A DNA stretch of 64,000 nucleotides, from positions 2,368,001 to 2,432,000 of the forward strand of contig CAXXMD010000002.1 of assembly GCA_963675755.2 (NCBI GenBank). Direction: 5' to 3'. This stretch comes from a bacterium (GTDB taxonomy: Bacteria; Zhuqueibacterota; Zhuqueibacteria; Residuimicrobiales; Krinioviventaceae). Positions 334 to 24,147 of the stretch are shown piece after piece; the stretch's first letter is position 1; each line of letters begins with the position of its first letter. The position numbers and the translations under genes are program-made. The notes under the pieces were generated by a model, which saw only the letters and a program-made list of their open reading frames with translations, did no database searches and had not been told where the DNA came from.

Positions 334-1368
334 TTATAAAGATTCAACCAGCTCTTTATAATTATATTCTTTTTTCAGTTGTTCTCTCAGCTCTTCTTCT
401 GCGTTATGTCTGGCTCTAAATTCCAATGCCTGCTGCAACCGGTTTTTCACATCTTTAAAATCTCTTTTTTCCTTTTTCCGTTCAATCACCTTTATAAAAT
501 GGTATCCCTGTTCGGTTTCAAAAACATCACTAAACTCACCGACTGGAGTACTGAAAGCCACATTTTCAAAATCTTCAAGCATAATACCACGTGACACATT
601 CGTATAAAGTCCGCCTTTATCTTTGGAGCGATTATCCTCAGAATTATTTTTTATGAGCTCGTCCAAATCTTCACCTGCTTTGGCGCGTTGTAACAGATCC
701 TGCATTTTAGCATAAATCTCTTTTTTCTCTTCATCTGTTTTACCGCCGGTTTTCATCAACATTTGTTGAAATGTAGCCGTCTTTTCTTTATTATATTCAG
801 CTAAAAGTTGTTCTTCTGTGGGTTCCGGAATTTTGCCATACACATATTGATCAAGAAAATTCTTGATCATCAGACTTTCGTTAACATCTTGAAGAAAAAA
901 TTCTTTGGTCATGCCCCGATAGTTCAGATCTTTATAGAAAGCCTCTTCTGTACCCATCGATTTATAGTATGCATTCAACACAGAATCAATCGCTGCCTGT
1001 TCTACAGTAATCTTTTTTGATTTGGCTGCATTAACAAAAACCTGCTTTTCAGCTAAAAATCTGGCGGTCTTTATTACAAGATCATGGGCATATTTTACTT
1101 CCAGCATATCTGTGTTGGTTTCATAGCGTTTCAATTTAGGATAAATAAACGGAATCACCTGACCTGAATAAATGCTGAATTTTTTGGTTGAAATAATTTC
1201 AGTATTTACATCGGGATCCAAAAGTATTGTCTTGTCTTTAATTGAAGACAAGTATTCATACTCTTCTGATCCTTTTTCATAGGGCATTGGCGGGGGTGCA
1301 CTCTTTTTCGAACAGGCACTAAAAACTATCATGATTGCGAATAAAAGAAAAAGAATACGTGATTTCAT
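334..1368 (-). CDS. Parvulin-type peptidyl-prolyl isomerase lipoprotein (PrsA/SurA-like)
   Basis: Lipobox FSAC, SurA-N-like helical region and rotamase motifs (SED..S...GGL; FE..AF; S..FET..GYH.IKV). Start moved to ATG 1368, which has a GGAG RBS. Confidence 0.85.
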   Translation of the reverse strand: MKSRILFLLFAIMIVFSACSKKSAPPPMPYEKGSEEYEYLSSIKDKTILLDPDVNTEIISTKKFSIYSGQVIPFIYPKLKRYETNTDMLEVKYAHDLVIKTARFLAEKQVFVNAAKSKKITVEQAAIDSVLNAYYKSMGTEEAFYKDLNYRGMTKEFFLQDVNESLMIKNFLDQYVYGKIPEPTEEQLLAEYNKEKTATFQQMLMKTGGKTDEEKKEIYAKMQDLLQRAKAGEDLDELIKNNSEDNRSKDKGGLYTNVSRGIMLEDFENVAFSTPVGEFSDVFETEQGYHFIKVIERKKEKRDFKDVKNRLQQALEFRARHNAEEELREQLKKEYNYKELVESL

Positions 1369-1580
1369 AAAAACAACTCCTGTCAAAATTTACAATTTAT
1401 AAAGGTATAAAAAAATAACAGCAAAGCCTACTTTTTTTTGTATTTTTTAAACACATCAGGCTTTAATCGGTTCCCATAAAAAAATAATACTGTATATTGA
1501 CAAATACACTTGAAATACCTAAATTTAAGCAAATTGAAAGATTAATAGATCATGACTCGCTCATACATGGGAAAACATGA

Positions 1581-19203: not shown

Positions 19204-19575
19204 TTAGGCCAATACTTGTTCCATTGCATTAAACAAACGTTCATCTACAATGGGTTTTACAAGAAAAATGGATTCGGAATCTTGTTCAAGCCTGTCTAAT
19301 GTACGCTTGTCTGAATTACCGGTAAGGTATATTATTGGAATTGAAAATTCCTTACGGATGTTTGTGGCCGTTTCAATTCCATCCATGTCCCCTCGTAAGC
19401 CAATATCCATAATAACAATATCTGGCCCATATTCTTTGACACTCTTTAAACAATCTTTACCTGAATTTACAACAGCAACAACATTGTATCCTTTTTCATT
19501 CAGCTTTAATTCAGTATCCAAAGCAATAATTGCATCGTCTTCGGCAATAATTACCCTAGCTTTATCGTTGTTCAT
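19204..19575 (-). CDS. Single-domain response regulator (REC)
   Basis: IIAEDD, MDI (phosphoacceptor Asp), LTG, KP. Confidence 0.9.
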   Translation of the reverse strand: MNNDKARVIIAEDDAIIALDTELKLNEKGYNVVAVVNSGKDCLKSVKEYGPDIVIMDIGLRGDMDGIETATNIRKEFSIPIIYLTGNSDKRTLDRLEQDSESIFLVKPIVDERLFNAMEQVLA

Positions 19576-19716
19576 CGATCACTCCGTATTATTTCTATCT
19601 TAAAACTTAAAAGTACAGATGTCTATTCCATAAAAAATCAACAAAAAACATCATATTCAAGCTTACATGACATCGAAATAGGAATTTCCTTACAACAAAA
19701 TACGTAATTTTCCCTA

Positions 19717-19745
19717 TTTCATTTTTGAAATCAGTGTGTTATATT
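19717..19745 (+). promoter_or_regulatory. Putative extended -10 promoter of the intergenic RNA
   Basis: TG-T-TATATT at 19737-19745 with a weak -35 (TTTCAT) 17 nt upstream. Predicted +1 is about 19751, the first base of the RNA's closing stem. Confidence 0.55.
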
Positions 19746-19750
19746 TAATC

Positions 19751-19915
19751 AGTTAGTTAACGCAAGCAGTAATGCTTATATGTCACCCCCGGTACTGGCG
19801 ACCCCCCTAAGCTGGTACTGAGACATCTTTTATGCGTTAACGACTTAATGCCAAGCGTCATCCCCGGTACCGGTGACCCCCCTAAATCGGTACTTAGACG
19901 GCTTGGCATTTTTTT
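19751..19915 (+). ncRNA. Putative novel structured small RNA with two C-rich-loop hairpins
   Basis: Closing stem AGTT(A)GTTAACGCA / TGCGTTAAC-GACT; AAGCA-GTAA-TGCTT GNRA hairpin; two 43-nt repeats with compensatory stem changes and identical loop GACCCCCCTAA; terminal stem AATGCCAAGC/GCTTGGCATT plus a T run. Confidence 0.75.
19782..19899 (+). repeat. Two 43-nt direct repeats (19782-19824 and 19857-19899)
   Basis: GTCACCCCCGGTACTGGCGACCCCCCTAAGCTGGTACTGAGAC versus GTCATCCCCGGTACCGGTGACCCCCCTAAATCGGTACTTAGAC: 36 of 43 positions identical by hand alignment. Confidence 0.95.
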
Positions 19916-19930
19916 ATTATATGCAATTTT

Positions 19931-21442
19931 TTAATAAATTGCCTCACCAATTTCAAGCACAATATCAATCCTACGATTTTTACGGCGACCATCTTCTGTT
20001 TCATTACTGGCTATCGGTTTACTTTTTCCATAACCAATGCTCTGTATTTGTTCAGAAGGCAAGCCCATATTGGCTATTAAATAAGATTTGACAGCATTTG
20101 ATCGCTGTTCGGAAAGTTTCTGGTTTGCGGCATCGTGCCCTCTCGAGTCGGTATGACCTTCAATAACAATAGGCGCATTGGGGAACTCTCGTATTGCTCG
20201 CTGTACCTTGGTCAGCAATCCAAAATAACCGGGCTCAATAACACTCTTACCTGATGCAAAATTCAAACCCACCAAACGAATAACAAGGTTGGTGCCTTCG
20301 CGTAGAACAACCGCTTCCTGAGGCGCGTACATATCTTCAATTCGTTTAATCTTGGCTTCCTGACGTTTCTTGGCTTCAAGTGTCTCTTTCAGGCCCGCTT
20401 CCTGTTGTTTGCTTACATCCAGTTCAGCGGTAAGCTTGCGATTTTTTGACATGCTTTCATCGAGCTCTTTGTTAACCCGTTCCAATTCTTTGCGCAATTC
20501 AATTTTATCATCAAGGGACGCAGCAATTGCCAGATGGAGCGATTCCATCGCCGGTTGCATACCATTGTCGTACTGTACATCCAGCTTCATGGTATTAGAA
20601 ACGGTTGAAAGATTGTCTTCAAGATCCAGAAATATCTTTTCCCAACTGTCTTCTTCTTTCCGGTTTTTTTGAATCAAATCCGAAAGAAAAATAGCATGAT
20701 TGGCTTCGTATTCCGCTTCTTCGGCTTTTTCTCTGGCTGTAGACTGGGCGCTGCGGTCGGTATTGAGAATATTCTCAGCCTCTTGCAGTAATACTTTGGC
20801 CCGGTTGTAGGTTCGGGGGGCATAACGATCTGCTTTGGTTTCTTTGGCCTTGTCCAGGAGTAAATGCACCTTGCCAATAATGCTGGCCTTGATAGCATTT
20901 AATTCAGCTTGACGATAACGATCTTCACCATCTTTGGCTTTTTTAATTGCGTTATTGATATCATTATCTTCAATCTCTTCCATTGCATCTTTAAAACTGC
21001 GTTCTGCCTGTTCGTACAATTCTAAAGAAAATTCAGGGGCATTGGCAATCAATGCATCATCACGCGCCTGAATTAAAAAAGGAAGCTGTTTTTTAGCTTC
21101 TTTGGCATTACCAATTGCTTTTGCAAGATACTCTTCAGCACGATTTAAATTCTTTTGGATGCTTTTCACATCCCTGCCACGCTCAAGATCCAGTTTGGCT
21201 TCATCAAAATGCCGTTGGGCCCGTTCAAAATCATTCGGTGACAATACATGAACCTGGAGTGATTGAGCATCTTCAAGGACGTGCTCAATGTCAACCAATT
21301 TTTGGTTCATTTGAGCCAATATACCCTGCTCACCAGCCTGCGCAAAAACAGAACCAGGAGCAGAAACCAGCACAATGAACATGATCAACATAAAATAATA
21401 AACAGGCAAGCTTTTGCTGCCATTTCTCAAGACTAAAGACAT
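19931..21442 (-). CDS. OmpA-family peptidoglycan-binding protein with long N-terminal helical/coiled-coil region
   Basis: Signal peptide; C-terminal IEGHTDS.G....N.KLSEQR and GRRKNRRIDI motifs. Confidence 0.88.
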   Translation of the reverse strand: MSLVLRNGSKSLPVYYFMLIMFIVLVSAPGSVFAQAGEQGILAQMNQKLVDIEHVLEDAQSLQVHVLSPNDFERAQRHFDEAKLDLERGRDVKSIQKNLNRAEEYLAKAIGNAKEAKKQLPFLIQARDDALIANAPEFSLELYEQAERSFKDAMEEIEDNDINNAIKKAKDGEDRYRQAELNAIKASIIGKVHLLLDKAKETKADRYAPRTYNRAKVLLQEAENILNTDRSAQSTAREKAEEAEYEANHAIFLSDLIQKNRKEEDSWEKIFLDLEDNLSTVSNTMKLDVQYDNGMQPAMESLHLAIAASLDDKIELRKELERVNKELDESMSKNRKLTAELDVSKQQEAGLKETLEAKKRQEAKIKRIEDMYAPQEAVVLREGTNLVIRLVGLNFASGKSVIEPGYFGLLTKVQRAIREFPNAPIVIEGHTDSRGHDAANQKLSEQRSNAVKSYLIANMGLPSEQIQSIGYGKSKPIASNETEDGRRKNRRIDIVLEIGEAIY

Positions 21443-21466
21443 AATACCTCCCCTCTCCTTCTTTTT

Positions 21467-21862
21467 TTAATGAGGTAATGTAACTTTTGTCAAAGCTTCT
21501 CTCAAGTTTTCAGGTGTTACCGGCTTTGTTAAATACCATTCACACCCTTCATTAAATGAAGACATGATATCTTTGACATCATTTTTAATTGTAATCATTA
21601 AAATCTTGGCTTCCTGAGAAAACTTTACCTTATTATCAGTTTCCCATTTGCGGATATGATGAACCACCTGCTGTCCTGACATATCTGGCATTTCGATATC
21701 CATAGTAATCAAATTATAGGGGTCAGAATCTTTATGTGCTTTTTCAAACATAGACAGAGCTTCTTCACCATTCGGAACCGCGTCACACGTGCCATACTCA
21801 GACAATAACGCCTGCAATTTTGTACGGCTCACGTAATCATCATCCACAACCAATATCCTCAT
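21467..21862 (-). CDS. Single-domain response regulator (CheY-like)
   Basis: ILVVDDD, MDIEMP, KP. Confidence 0.9.
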   Translation of the reverse strand: MRILVVDDDYVSRTKLQALLSEYGTCDAVPNGEEALSMFEKAHKDSDPYNLITMDIEMPDMSGQQVVHHIRKWETDNKVKFSQEAKILMITIKNDVKDIMSSFNEGCEWYLTKPVTPENLREALTKVTLPH

Positions 21863-21885
21863 TGCTTACTCCTTTCAGTTGGAAA

Positions 21886-24147
21886 TTATTTTTTATTATT
21901 GATATATTCTGTTAAATTATTTGCTTCAGTCTGAAAGGACTGAAAATAATCTTGCATATTCATTGTGTTATTTACCAGCGCACTCTCTTCAATTTTTTCT
22001 GCCCAACTTGCAAGTGGCATTGCCGTAAGATTGGCTGCACCGCCTCTAATTTTATGAGCTTCTGCAGCAAGTTTTTTCAAATCATTCTCTGCCAACGCCT
22101 GTTCAAACCGGGCTAACTGGTTTTTCACATCAACTAAAAAATGTTCCAAAACATTATCAAGGACCGTTTGGTTTCCACCAAATTCTACAATGGCTCGCTC
22201 ATAATCAATAGGTTTATGATTATTGGCGACTGGTTGTTCTTGATCTATTGGAACACTATTGTTTTCTATAATTATTTCATCATTTCCGGGCATCCATTTT
22301 TTTACCTGGTATACAAATGCTTTTCTTCGCAAAGGTTTTACCAGTACATCACTCATACCCAATTCTTTACACTTTTGTCTCGTTGCAGAATCTGCATGAG
22401 CCGTTATGGCCAGAATAGGCACATTTTTATAATAGCTAACTGAATTACGTATTTTTTGTGCTGCTTCATAACCACTCATTTCCGGCATTTGCAGATCCAT
22501 TAATACCAGGTCATATTGGTTGTTTTTGCACAATTCTATTGCGTCTTTTCCATTGTCAGCAGTATCAATCTTGTAATCTGATTCATTCAAATGCTGCAAT
22601 GCTACCTGCATGTTGGGGTAATAATCATCTACAATTAAAATCCGTCCCTGTCCTGAACCGGCCGCAAGCGGCATTATCACTTTTTCTTCTATATTTTCAA
22701 CCGTATTAGTATATACTTCCATTGGAAGTACAAACCAAAAGTGACTCCCTTTTCCTGGTTCACTTTCCAGAAAAATTTGGCCGTTCATCAAATCCACAAG
22801 TTGATAAGCAATTGTAGTACCCAGACCTGTACCACCATATTTTCGGGTAATACTTCCATCTGCCTGTGTAAAACTTTTGAAAATATCTTTTTGTTTATTT
22901 TTAGGAATACCTATACCTGTATCATGAACGTGAAATTCAATACTATGCAGTTGGTCATTAATGTTTTCAAAAGCTACAATAACCTTTACATAACCAGATT
23001 CAGTAAATTTCACAGCATTACTGCACAGATTCATTAAAATCTGAAGCAGGCGAAGTTCATCTCCCAGGTATACCAACTGATTTTTATTATTAATTTCAAT
23101 TTCAAATTTCAAATTTTTAGCATCTGCAAGTATTTTAACACTCTTGCTCAGCTTTTCCATTATATGCCTTAAACTGAACGGTCTTTTTTCAATCAGCATC
23201 TTTCCGGCTTCAATTTTTGCCAGGTCCAAAAGATCACTGATTAATAAAAGCAGCATTTCAGATTGTTCCAATACTGTTCCAGCATGATCATAAATATGAT
23301 CAAGCGAATTTGAATTCAATATAGATTCAGAGAATCCAATAATCGAGTTCAATGGAGTACGCATTTCATGAGACATATTGAAAACAAACTGCGACTTTAA
23401 TCGGTTCGCATCTTCTGCTACCTTTTTTGCATGCCTTAGATTCTCTTCTGCCTGTTTTCGTTCAATATATGCACCCAGCATTTCACTGGCTGTCTGTAAA
23501 ACTCTCAAATCCACTGAACGCCATTTTTTCTCACGATTATTGTCAACAAAACAAATCATACCATACCACTCTTTGTTAACAAAAATAGGAATTACCAACA
23601 AAGATTCAATTGATAACTCTATTAAAAATTGCCTTTCAGTTTCATTAAACTCGCCTGTCACACCAAATATGGGATTCCGGGAACTCAATTCAGTTTGCCA
23701 TCTCTGCAATCCTTTTGAATAACGCAAGGGAGACAATAATTTGTTTTTCACCTGACTGTGAAAGCCTCGGGAACAACGTTCGTTTGTTACCCTTGCACCC
23801 AAGCCCCATTTATAATTATGGTTTTTTAATACCCATACACGGCTAACACCAACTGACTGTTGCAAAAATTTGAGTCCCGTATCAACTGAATCTTTTTGAG
23901 TTACCAGCAAAGCCTTTGAAAAATTCGCAAGTCCTTCTTCATAACGAAGACGGATCGCAAGCGCGTTTTGAGCACTTTGCTTTTCTTCAATTTCCTGATT
24001 CAACTGCTCGTTAATATTGGCAAGCTTTGTATAGATCTCGTAATAATTTTTACGGGCAGTTTCGTATTCTTCCTGGGTCAACTGGAGATCATTATTCAGG
24101 TGCTTAATTTCTGTTTCCAGTAAATGTATCTTTTGTTTGTGTTCCAT
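21886..24147 (-). CDS. Cytoplasmic hybrid sensor kinase (coiled coil-GAF-HisKA-HATPase-REC-HPt)
   Basis: SHEMRTPL H-box, N box, DTGIG, GGTGLG, REC MDLQMP, HPt AHKIRGGA; no clear transmembrane helix. Confidence 0.9.
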   Translation of the reverse strand: MEHKQKIHLLETEIKHLNNDLQLTQEEYETARKNYYEIYTKLANINEQLNQEIEEKQSAQNALAIRLRYEEGLANFSKALLVTQKDSVDTGLKFLQQSVGVSRVWVLKNHNYKWGLGARVTNERCSRGFHSQVKNKLLSPLRYSKGLQRWQTELSSRNPIFGVTGEFNETERQFLIELSIESLLVIPIFVNKEWYGMICFVDNNREKKWRSVDLRVLQTASEMLGAYIERKQAEENLRHAKKVAEDANRLKSQFVFNMSHEMRTPLNSIIGFSESILNSNSLDHIYDHAGTVLEQSEMLLLLISDLLDLAKIEAGKMLIEKRPFSLRHIMEKLSKSVKILADAKNLKFEIEINNKNQLVYLGDELRLLQILMNLCSNAVKFTESGYVKVIVAFENINDQLHSIEFHVHDTGIGIPKNKQKDIFKSFTQADGSITRKYGGTGLGTTIAYQLVDLMNGQIFLESEPGKGSHFWFVLPMEVYTNTVENIEEKVIMPLAAGSGQGRILIVDDYYPNMQVALQHLNESDYKIDTADNGKDAIELCKNNQYDLVLMDLQMPEMSGYEAAQKIRNSVSYYKNVPILAITAHADSATRQKCKELGMSDVLVKPLRRKAFVYQVKKWMPGNDEIIIENNSVPIDQEQPVANNHKPIDYERAIVEFGGNQTVLDNVLEHFLVDVKNQLARFEQALAENDLKKLAAEAHKIRGGAANLTAMPLASWAEKIEESALVNNTMNMQDYFQSFQTEANNLTEYINNKK

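Follow-up and report, generated by a model that had tools for sequence, protein, structure and literature searches.

The window analysed here is a 64,000-nucleotide (nt) stretch of contig CAXXMD010000002.1 (positions 2,368,001 to 2,432,000, forward strand), from a bacterium of the order Residuimicrobiales. Two minus-strand genes of the window, a REC gene (19204-19575) and an OmpA-family gene (19931-21442), are separated by a gap of 355 nt, and this gap holds a repeated, structured RNA element that is the subject of this work. Our best reading is that positions 19752-19915 of the plus strand are a small-RNA gene with its own regulated promoter (19680-19747), and that this gene is a two-hairpin paralogue of an RNA family found throughout the candidate division KSB1. 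The features of the locus, in window coordinates, are as follows.

19680..19690, plus strand: inverted repeat AGGAAtTTCCT, centred near -66 and kept in 31 promoter segments of the order; conservation within the genus begins here
19699..19715, plus strand: upstream boxes AATACG (19699-19704) and TTTTCCCT (19708-19715), consensus AATACa..aTTTTcC, within a 38-nt element
19716..19747, plus strand: core promoter, with ATTT (19716-19719; -33/-35 element), a 20-nt spacer and TATATTTA (19740-19747; -10/-7 box), recognised by its order-wide spacing
19752..19915, plus strand: predicted small-RNA transcript of ~164 nt, placed by promoter and T-run position and by the fold z-score (5' end +/- 3 nt, 3' end within the T-run)
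19756..19841, plus strand: 5' multibranch domain closed by GTTAACGCA/TGCGTTAAC, from repeat search and fold, holding a GNRA hairpin (19764-19777, loop GUAA) and hairpin unit 1
19780..19826, plus strand: hairpin unit 1, with outer stem AUGUC/GACAU, 5' internal loop ACCCC, a 10-base-pair (bp) inner stem and loop GACCCCCCUAA (19800-19810)
19847..19910, plus strand: hairpin unit 2, which is the terminator hairpin, with outer stem 19847-19859 / 19897-19910, 5' internal loop AUCCCC, a 9-bp inner stem and loop GACCCCCCUAA (19875-19885)
19909..19915, plus strand: T7 run of the intrinsic terminator, read from the sequence; 59 of the 64 distinct members of the family likewise have at least 4 T behind the stem

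Two direct repeats with compensatory changes

The element is built on two direct repeats of 48 nt each (19782-19829 and 19857-19904; 81% identity). Over their 43-nt cores the copies differ at seven positions. Five of these differences fall in four pairs of the inner stem, and pairing is kept in all four (C-G to U-A, G-C to G-U, G-U to G-C and U-G to C-G). The sixth, 19820 G versus 19895 U, removes the lowest inner pair in copy 2, and the seventh is a change within the 5' internal loop. The apical loop, GACCCCCCTAA, is the same in both copies (19800-19810 and 19875-19885), each time with a run of six cytosines (C6). A preliminary description of the locus had pointed to the two repeats, the five pairing-neutral differences and the invariant loop, and our sequence comparison gives the same picture.

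Two longer stems frame the repeats. Both are perfect inverted repeats, of 9 nt in the closing stem (19756-19764 / 19833-19841) and of 10 nt in the terminator stem AATGCCAAGC/GCTTGGCATT (19847-19856 / 19901-19910). The minimum free energy (MFE) of the plus strand is -59.4 kcal/mol (z = -4.9), and none of 200 shuffled sequences was as stable. The MFE fold recovers the multibranch architecture and the GUAA hairpin and places copy 2 in the terminator stem ahead of the T run, as had been proposed. Folding of the minus strand gives z = -2.65, a value equalled by one of 200 shuffles. A GC-rich stem followed by a T-run on the transcribed strand, the configuration of an intrinsic terminator, is present at the 3' end of the window RNA. 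A search of the 64 kb for the 11-mer at up to one mismatch returns two matches, a count also reached in 13 of 100 shuffles, so the loop motif alone is not what makes the locus non-random. Its non-randomness lies in the 48-nt repeat, the fold and the conservation.

A covarying hairpin family across KSB1

The exact 11-mer occurs four times in the 6.48-Mb genome, always within one structural frame: an outer stem, a C-rich 5' internal loop, an inner stem of 8-10 bp and unrelated sequence, and the loop. A T-run follows in three of the four cases. The four hairpins occupy three loci, namely the window (two hairpins), C2:962863-962941 (minus strand) and C3:1615453-1615534 (minus strand). Two additional weak matches, at 23.5 and 20.3 bits, cover nothing but the outer stem and T-run; we rejected them as family members and regard them as ordinary terminators.

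BLASTN detected partial matches in 37 of 61 relatives. We built a covariance model, R1, on an alignment of 27 units with a 20-pair structure. In these 27 units 93.0% of cells are paired, compared to 29-44% when the partners are slid, and double changes are seen in 14 of the 20 pairs; none of 500 shuffles reached the observed values. Extending the set to 64 distinct units gives 90.8% of cells paired (32-46% slid) and double changes in all 20 pairs, although this alignment was fitted to the model and leans towards it. Both window hairpins score well with R1 (unit 1, 49.8 bits, E 8.7e-10; unit 2, 86.3 bits, E 2.3e-20). The family unit that emerges is ~70 nt long. Its outer stem is rich in GC and also serves as an intrinsic terminator, its inner stem covaries freely, and its apical loop has 11-13 nt. 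The loop reads RAC(C/U)CCCCUAA in 57 of the 64 distinct units, and the 5' CCCC internal loop is found in 28 of 64, mainly in this order.

Matches to R1 are nearly universal in the order (42 of 43 genomes at E<=1e-3, with 0-6 matches per genome), so the structure that the preliminary description had inferred from one locus is conserved in relatives. In the class, 69 of 125 genomes have matches. A sample of the phylum gave 56 matched genomes out of 151 (E<=1e-4), two of them outside the class, and both of these matches look genuine by eye. In each (L137 = G136:C192; L138 = G142:C156) the hairpin lies 30-40 nt past the stop codon of an rpsT-like gene, whose C-terminus, on our by-eye reading, presumably resembles ribosomal protein S20. 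Two-hairpin RNAs recur in other lineages (L013, L018, L058-60 and L064/L072/L093), and tandem gene arrays are common, with a spacing of 160-260 nt. The 5' multibranch domain was seen in this genus only. In an alignment of the locus with its counterpart from the same genus, the two sequences are almost identical between the inverted repeat and the T-run, and identity falls off on either side. Three substitutions fall within the RNA, all at unpaired positions, and one of them changes the GUAA tetraloop to GCAA, which keeps the GNRA form.

When one genome per species was scanned for the pattern, there were 16 matching stretches, all from metagenome-assembled genomes (MAGs), and no match beyond the group of MAGs related to KSB1 and Calditrichota. 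The records carry the labels candidate division KSB1, Calditrichota, 'uncultured Cytophagia', plain 'bacterium' and, in one case, Actinomycetota. For L083, L084, L086, L087, L089, L090 and L091, the labels 'uncultured Cytophagia' or 'Actinomycetota' clash with the KSB1 and Calditrichota labels on other family-bearing contigs; these look like mislabelled MAGs.

The small number of copies bears on a further possibility, namely that the element is a dispersed repeat resembling repetitive extragenic palindromes or miniature inverted-repeat transposable elements, or else a minus-strand small protein gene (a 50-amino-acid open reading frame at 19757-19909). The unit is indeed repeated within the locus, and the minus-strand frame has an ATG start and 50 codons. 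Against a mobile repeat stand the four copies in 6.48 Mb, the similarly low numbers in relatives, and positions that are syntenic across genera and adjoin a regulator gene. The reading frame could not be encoded by the single-hairpin homologues, and its repeated LGGSPVPG mirrors the repeated hairpin; moreover, the substitutions are compensatory for RNA pairing, which suits neither version. Both are largely refuted, and we consider their probability negligible.

Rfam 15 has no match at gathering score anywhere in the window, nothing credible at E<=10 in 19500-20000, and no match for the hairpins of 20 homologous loci. In the open-access literature on small or non-coding RNA of KSB1 and Calditrich* (supplements and motif catalogues outside Rfam not covered), no account of the family was found. 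The window RNA therefore belongs to a previously undescribed small-RNA family of a known kind, in keeping with the initial impression that it was not a recognised one. Because it is near-universal in one order and shows clean covariation, the family is fit for an Rfam entry as it stands.

At one locus of the family (G042, L014), a group II intron (1094-1377, minus strand) is located directly downstream of the RNA terminator hairpin (1497-1573, minus strand), with Rfam scores of 102.8 bits for D1-D4-3 and 62.4 bits for D1-D4-1. Some bacterial group II introns insert after terminators.

Promoter architecture and two-component neighbours

Across the order, 31 distinct promoter segments share one layout: an inverted repeat (~GTAAGG-N5-CCTTACA), N5, AATACA, N5, TTTTCCCT, ATTG, exactly 20 nt, and TATATT(TA), with 8-40 nt between this last box and the hairpin. 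The window has TATATT at 19740-19745 with TGT ahead of it, and we predict a transcription start near 19752. The spacing ATT[GT]-N20-TATATT is kept across the order. A promoter weight matrix derived from 24 relatives, with this genus left out, gives 61.5 bits for the window promoter and 19.4 bits for the runner-up in the 6.48-Mb genome. For the 38-nt upstream part alone, the corresponding scores are 37.1 and 26.5 bits. The RNA has its own promoter at a fixed distance, conserved along with it and predicted to be active. The conserved unit begins ~80 nt further upstream than the preliminary description had placed it, at this promoter; that description had also missed the phylum-wide family and the analogues (6C RNA and RepG) considered below. 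Its central claim, an independent structured RNA gene on the plus strand, is borne out by the fold z-score and by homologues with their own promoters and T-runs across order, class and phylum.

Other promoter types are found elsewhere in the class. In eight loci from other families a sigma-54-type sequence, TGGCAC-N5-TTG, lies just upstream of the hairpin, and family f6 has TTGACA-N17-TATATT ahead of it.

The genes next to the hairpins suggest which regulators might act at these promoters. At 20 of 26 loci the RNA and the gene upstream of it share a strand, and all 12 upstream genes tested (~218 amino acids) encode REC+GerE proteins of the NarL/FixJ type, 50-65% identical to the one in this genome, where the gene order is HisKA_3 kinase, NarL-type regulator, RNA, TPR lipoprotein gene. 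Of three sigma-54-type loci with long flanking sequence, two (L082 and L083) are immediately preceded by a REC-Sigma54_activat-HTH_8 gene, and the third (L093) lacks such a neighbour. The type of regulator matches the type of promoter in two lineages. From this neighbourhood evidence the family is apparently switched on by two-component systems. In this order, a NarL-type response regulator would most likely drive transcription from a sigma-70-type promoter that carries an inverted repeat; for other families within the class, it would be an NtrC-type regulator at a sigma-54-type promoter. The inverted repeat at 19680-19690 is presumed to bind a dimeric NarL-type regulator, an assignment that we drew from the gene neighbourhood. 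In the window itself an apparent minus-strand cluster (19204-24147) comprises a hybrid histidine kinase (GAF-HisKA-HATPase-REC-Hpt), a REC gene and the OmpA-family gene, followed, past the small-RNA gene, by a second REC gene and topA. The hybrid kinase lies 2 kb from the RNA, and its best NCBIfam match is BarA, far below the equivalog cut-off. Regulator genes paired with a matching promoter class provide a testable regulatory circuit for organisms that have not yet been grown.

The neighbourhoods also bear on two cis-acting explanations. The element might mainly be an elaborate terminator, possibly one that works in both directions, or a structure at the 3' end of neighbouring operons (the converging OmpA-family operon here, the regulator operon at the second locus, rpsT in other classes). 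Twenty of 26 loci are directly downstream of a same-strand gene, L137 and L138 lie closely behind an rpsT-like gene, and hairpin 2 ends 16 nt from the stop codon of the OmpA-family gene on the opposite strand, all of which such a structure would explain. However, an invariant 11-nt loop and a covarying inner stem are not needed for termination, conserved promoters belonging to the RNA loci themselves stand between the hairpin and the gene upstream, the T-run is found on one strand only, and the window has no plus-strand gene upstream. We therefore consider a mainly cis-acting role unlikely.

A leader that senses a ligand or otherwise regulates in cis, with small hairpins in tandem like those of guanidine-II riboswitches, would fit two similar tandem hairpins of which one is embedded in a terminator, and in family f1 a TPR lipoprotein gene does come next on the same strand. 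A convergent gene lies downstream at 19 of 29 loci, which argues against a 5' leader. There is also no conserved downstream gene family (the neighbours vary and include OmpA-family, TyrRS, MetH and type IX secretion system (T9SS) cargo genes), no antiterminator alternative pairing is evident, and Rfam gives no riboswitch match. We regard a leader function as very improbable.

Mode of action and comparison with known systems

We take the apical loop to be the business end of the RNA because it is the only sequence conserved across the class. Under the reading that we favour, the RNA would act in trans through its exposed C-rich loop or loops. The most likely mechanism, by analogy with described RNAs, would be the formation of G-C-rich duplexes between the loop and G-rich stretches located in ribosome-binding sites or close to them, independent of Hfq; the 98%-complete genome yielded no Hfq domain. 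That the family is an independently transcribed structured RNA is highly probable. For the complete statement, an independently transcribed, trans-acting RNA that is the output of a two-component system and works by loop-mediated pairing, we estimate a probability of roughly 55%.

Several points weigh against this reading. The transcript, its ends and its abundance are predictions. A simple consensus scanner calls neither a promoter nor a terminator in the window, because its rules require a TTGACA-like -35 element and a loop of 3-8 nt. The 18-nt palindrome alone is not discriminating in the genome, and for this reason the regulator assignment is drawn from the neighbourhood only. The Shine-Dalgarno (SD) sequence of this genome is the canonical AGGAG/GGAGG, which is a poor match for a C6 run, so a general anti-SD role is unlikely. 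With RNAduplex at E<=-16 kcal/mol, the two loops of the genome gave 13-15 matches and the class-consensus loop 10, compared to 17-31 for the controls (11 control 13-mers, comprising nine flank-permuted C6 loops, the reversed loop and the anti-SD sequence, all run against ribosome-binding windows from 4835 crude genes). The enrichment of T9SS cargo genes among the matches of the real loops did not exceed that among the matches of the controls. The best single match, 10 nt at C3:1164715, is conserved only within the genus. Finally, a loop with 11-12 nucleotides that do not vary across the class could be explained just as well by a specific protein partner.

The target searches gave the following results. 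Around 39 matches were found for 7-mers complementary to the loop at 3-22 nt ahead of start codons. Several of these ribosome-binding sites have AUUAGGGG(G)AAA, in genes for T9SS cargo, a TonB-dependent receptor and a PorZ-like protein. Our own hidden Markov model of the C-terminal domain identified 279 T9SS cargo genes among the 4835 crude genes, in agreement with 279 first-look PF18962 candidates. Six of the 279 cargo genes have TTAGGGG at the ribosome-binding site, as do 12 of the 4556 other genes, a small enrichment (odds ratio 8.3, p 4e-4; the paralogues are not independent). Other G-rich words are enriched at cargo ribosome-binding sites too (GGGG, odds ratio 2.7; TAAGGGG, odds ratio 6.4), and GGGG itself is found at 22.9% of cargo sites versus 10.1% of those of other genes. 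Since flank-permuted, reversed and anti-SD controls do as well in RNAduplex, we rejected the T9SS cargo result as evidence of loop targets. A search for a conserved complementary target site, a weak test that covered this genome and one candidate, found none. No complementarity of note was seen between the loop and rRNA, and the 48 runs of at least seven G in the genome show no pattern. The gene for the neighbouring regulator has GGGG at its ribosome-binding site in 5 of 12 loci, as compared to ~10% genome-wide (the loci are related), and this G-rich site is a possible lead for feedback.

Two other features of this genome were recorded. Homopolymeric tracts of nine G (C3:727237, minus strand) and ten G (C3:2221513, minus strand) could be phase-variable or small-RNA-targeted sites; the first lies 6 nt before the start of a 249-amino-acid open reading frame. 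In addition, tandem paralogues of a PKD-domain T9SS cargo protein of ~1100 amino acids, with near-identical 5' leaders (..AAUAAUAUUAGGGGGAAACCGUG), are located at G000:C2:1936000-1957600 and C3:46300-50100.

The preliminary description had suggested an anti-SD small RNA or a protein sponge. An independent, structured RNA gene is upheld; general anti-SD pairing is unlikely with a canonical SD, and the target searches stayed at control level. A specific protein partner is a serious rival to pairing. In this case the RNA would be a protein-binding decoy, in which the invariant loop, closed by a CCGG stem, is the site for an RNA-binding protein, and two hairpins or tandem genes supply at least two sites. 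The invariance of the loop over 11-12 nt across the class speaks for such a sponge, as do the identical loops repeated within one RNA in several lineages (the window and the two-hairpin loci named above), the tandem gene arrays, and the lack of an mRNA target signal over controls. The promoter logic also resembles that of GacA and the sponge RNAs RsmY/Z, and the GacA upstream sequence given in PMC4353343, TGTAAGCATTCTCTTACA, has similar half-sites. On the other hand, there is no known candidate protein, and no gene for an RNA-binding protein is among the conserved neighbours. A single CsrA homologue is present (G000:C2:1007752-1007910, minus strand; 84 bits), but the 165-nt RNA does not contain the GGA motif of CsrA, and one or two sites per RNA would be a weak capacity. 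We judge a sponge to be possible but doubtful.

Returning to a regulated trans-acting RNA, a broader version can be put forward tentatively, as a conjecture that we think has less than even odds. The family may be a dedicated two-component output throughout the phylum, an independently evolved relay resembling Gac/Rsm or LuxO/Qrr, in which the class of promoter and regulator was swapped while the 12-nt loop was kept. The loop would then recognise one conserved partner, either a protein or a G-rich RNA site, rather than SD sequences generally. Almost nothing is known of RNA regulators in KSB1, Calditrichota and the wider FCB group; the table of a 2022 survey gives one annotated small RNA for Calditrichaeota and 16 for the FCB group (PMC9029176).

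The window RNA is not a member of any of the known systems with which we compared it: it has no covariance-model match, no GGA, and a half-site spacing that is off by one base. RsaE/RoxS and other Firmicutes small RNAs with several C-rich motifs use these unpaired motifs to pair with G-rich ribosome-binding sites, and the preliminary description had already drawn the comparison with RsaE. The window RNA has no Rfam match to them, and both taxon and architecture differ. In the Qrr RNAs the seed is a single-stranded 5' region, whereas here it would be a hairpin loop. The window promoter is of the sigma-70 type (ATTT-N20-TATATT), there is no Rfam match to Qrr (RF00378), and Hfq was not found. The likeness to Qrr is seen in the eight KSB1 loci with TGGCAC-N5-TTG, two of which have an NtrC-type gene directly upstream; Qrr RNAs are described in bioRxiv 10.1101/2021.07.01.450815 as sibling small RNAs whose sigma-54 promoters are controlled by an NtrC-type response regulator.

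The window locus is comparable to those of RsmY, RsmZ and CsrB (GacA/UvrY) in its upstream palindrome, whose family consensus has half-sites like GTAAG/CTTAC, in a presumed regulator of the NarL family and in a hybrid kinase similar to BarA 2 kb away, although this match is below the cut-off. The GacA box is given as TGTAAG-N6-CTTACA in PMC4353343, while the family consensus GTAAGG-N5-CCTTAC places GTAAG and CTTAC 7 nt apart, not 6, and the window has AGGAAtTTCCTTACA. Unlike these RNAs, the window RNA lacks GGA throughout 19751-19915 and has C-rich loops, and because of these loops binding of CsrA is not expected.

The closest described analogues are 6C RNA and RepG. The 6C RNA of Actinobacteria (RF01066) consists, by the account in PMC6486639, of two stem-loops with at least six cytosines in each loop, a feature that the window RNA also has; its C-rich loops are described there as pairing with ribosome-binding sites such as AGGGGGG without a chaperone. 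However, RF01066 gave no match at the gathering score, at E<=10 (19500-20000) or on the 20 homologous loci, and the host is different, with a genome of 39% GC and relatives recorded as KSB1 or Calditrichota. The window family also differs from 6C in that the candidate seed loop is inside the terminator hairpin, has the invariant flanks RA...UAA, and belongs to a basic unit of a single hairpin. The relationship to 6C RNA is one of analogy, not membership. RepG of Helicobacter pylori is reported in PMC8295292 to use the C/U-rich loop of its terminator hairpin as the seed for a G-repeat in an mRNA leader, and its gene adjoins a response-regulator gene. The window family is like RepG in having a C-rich sequence in the terminator loop and a response-regulator neighbour; there is no sequence relationship, and no G-repeat target was identified here. 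With this family, the cases from Actinobacteria, Firmicutes and Epsilonproteobacteria would be joined by an independent one in which a C-rich loop, here that of the terminator hairpin, is exposed and may act as an Hfq-independent seed.

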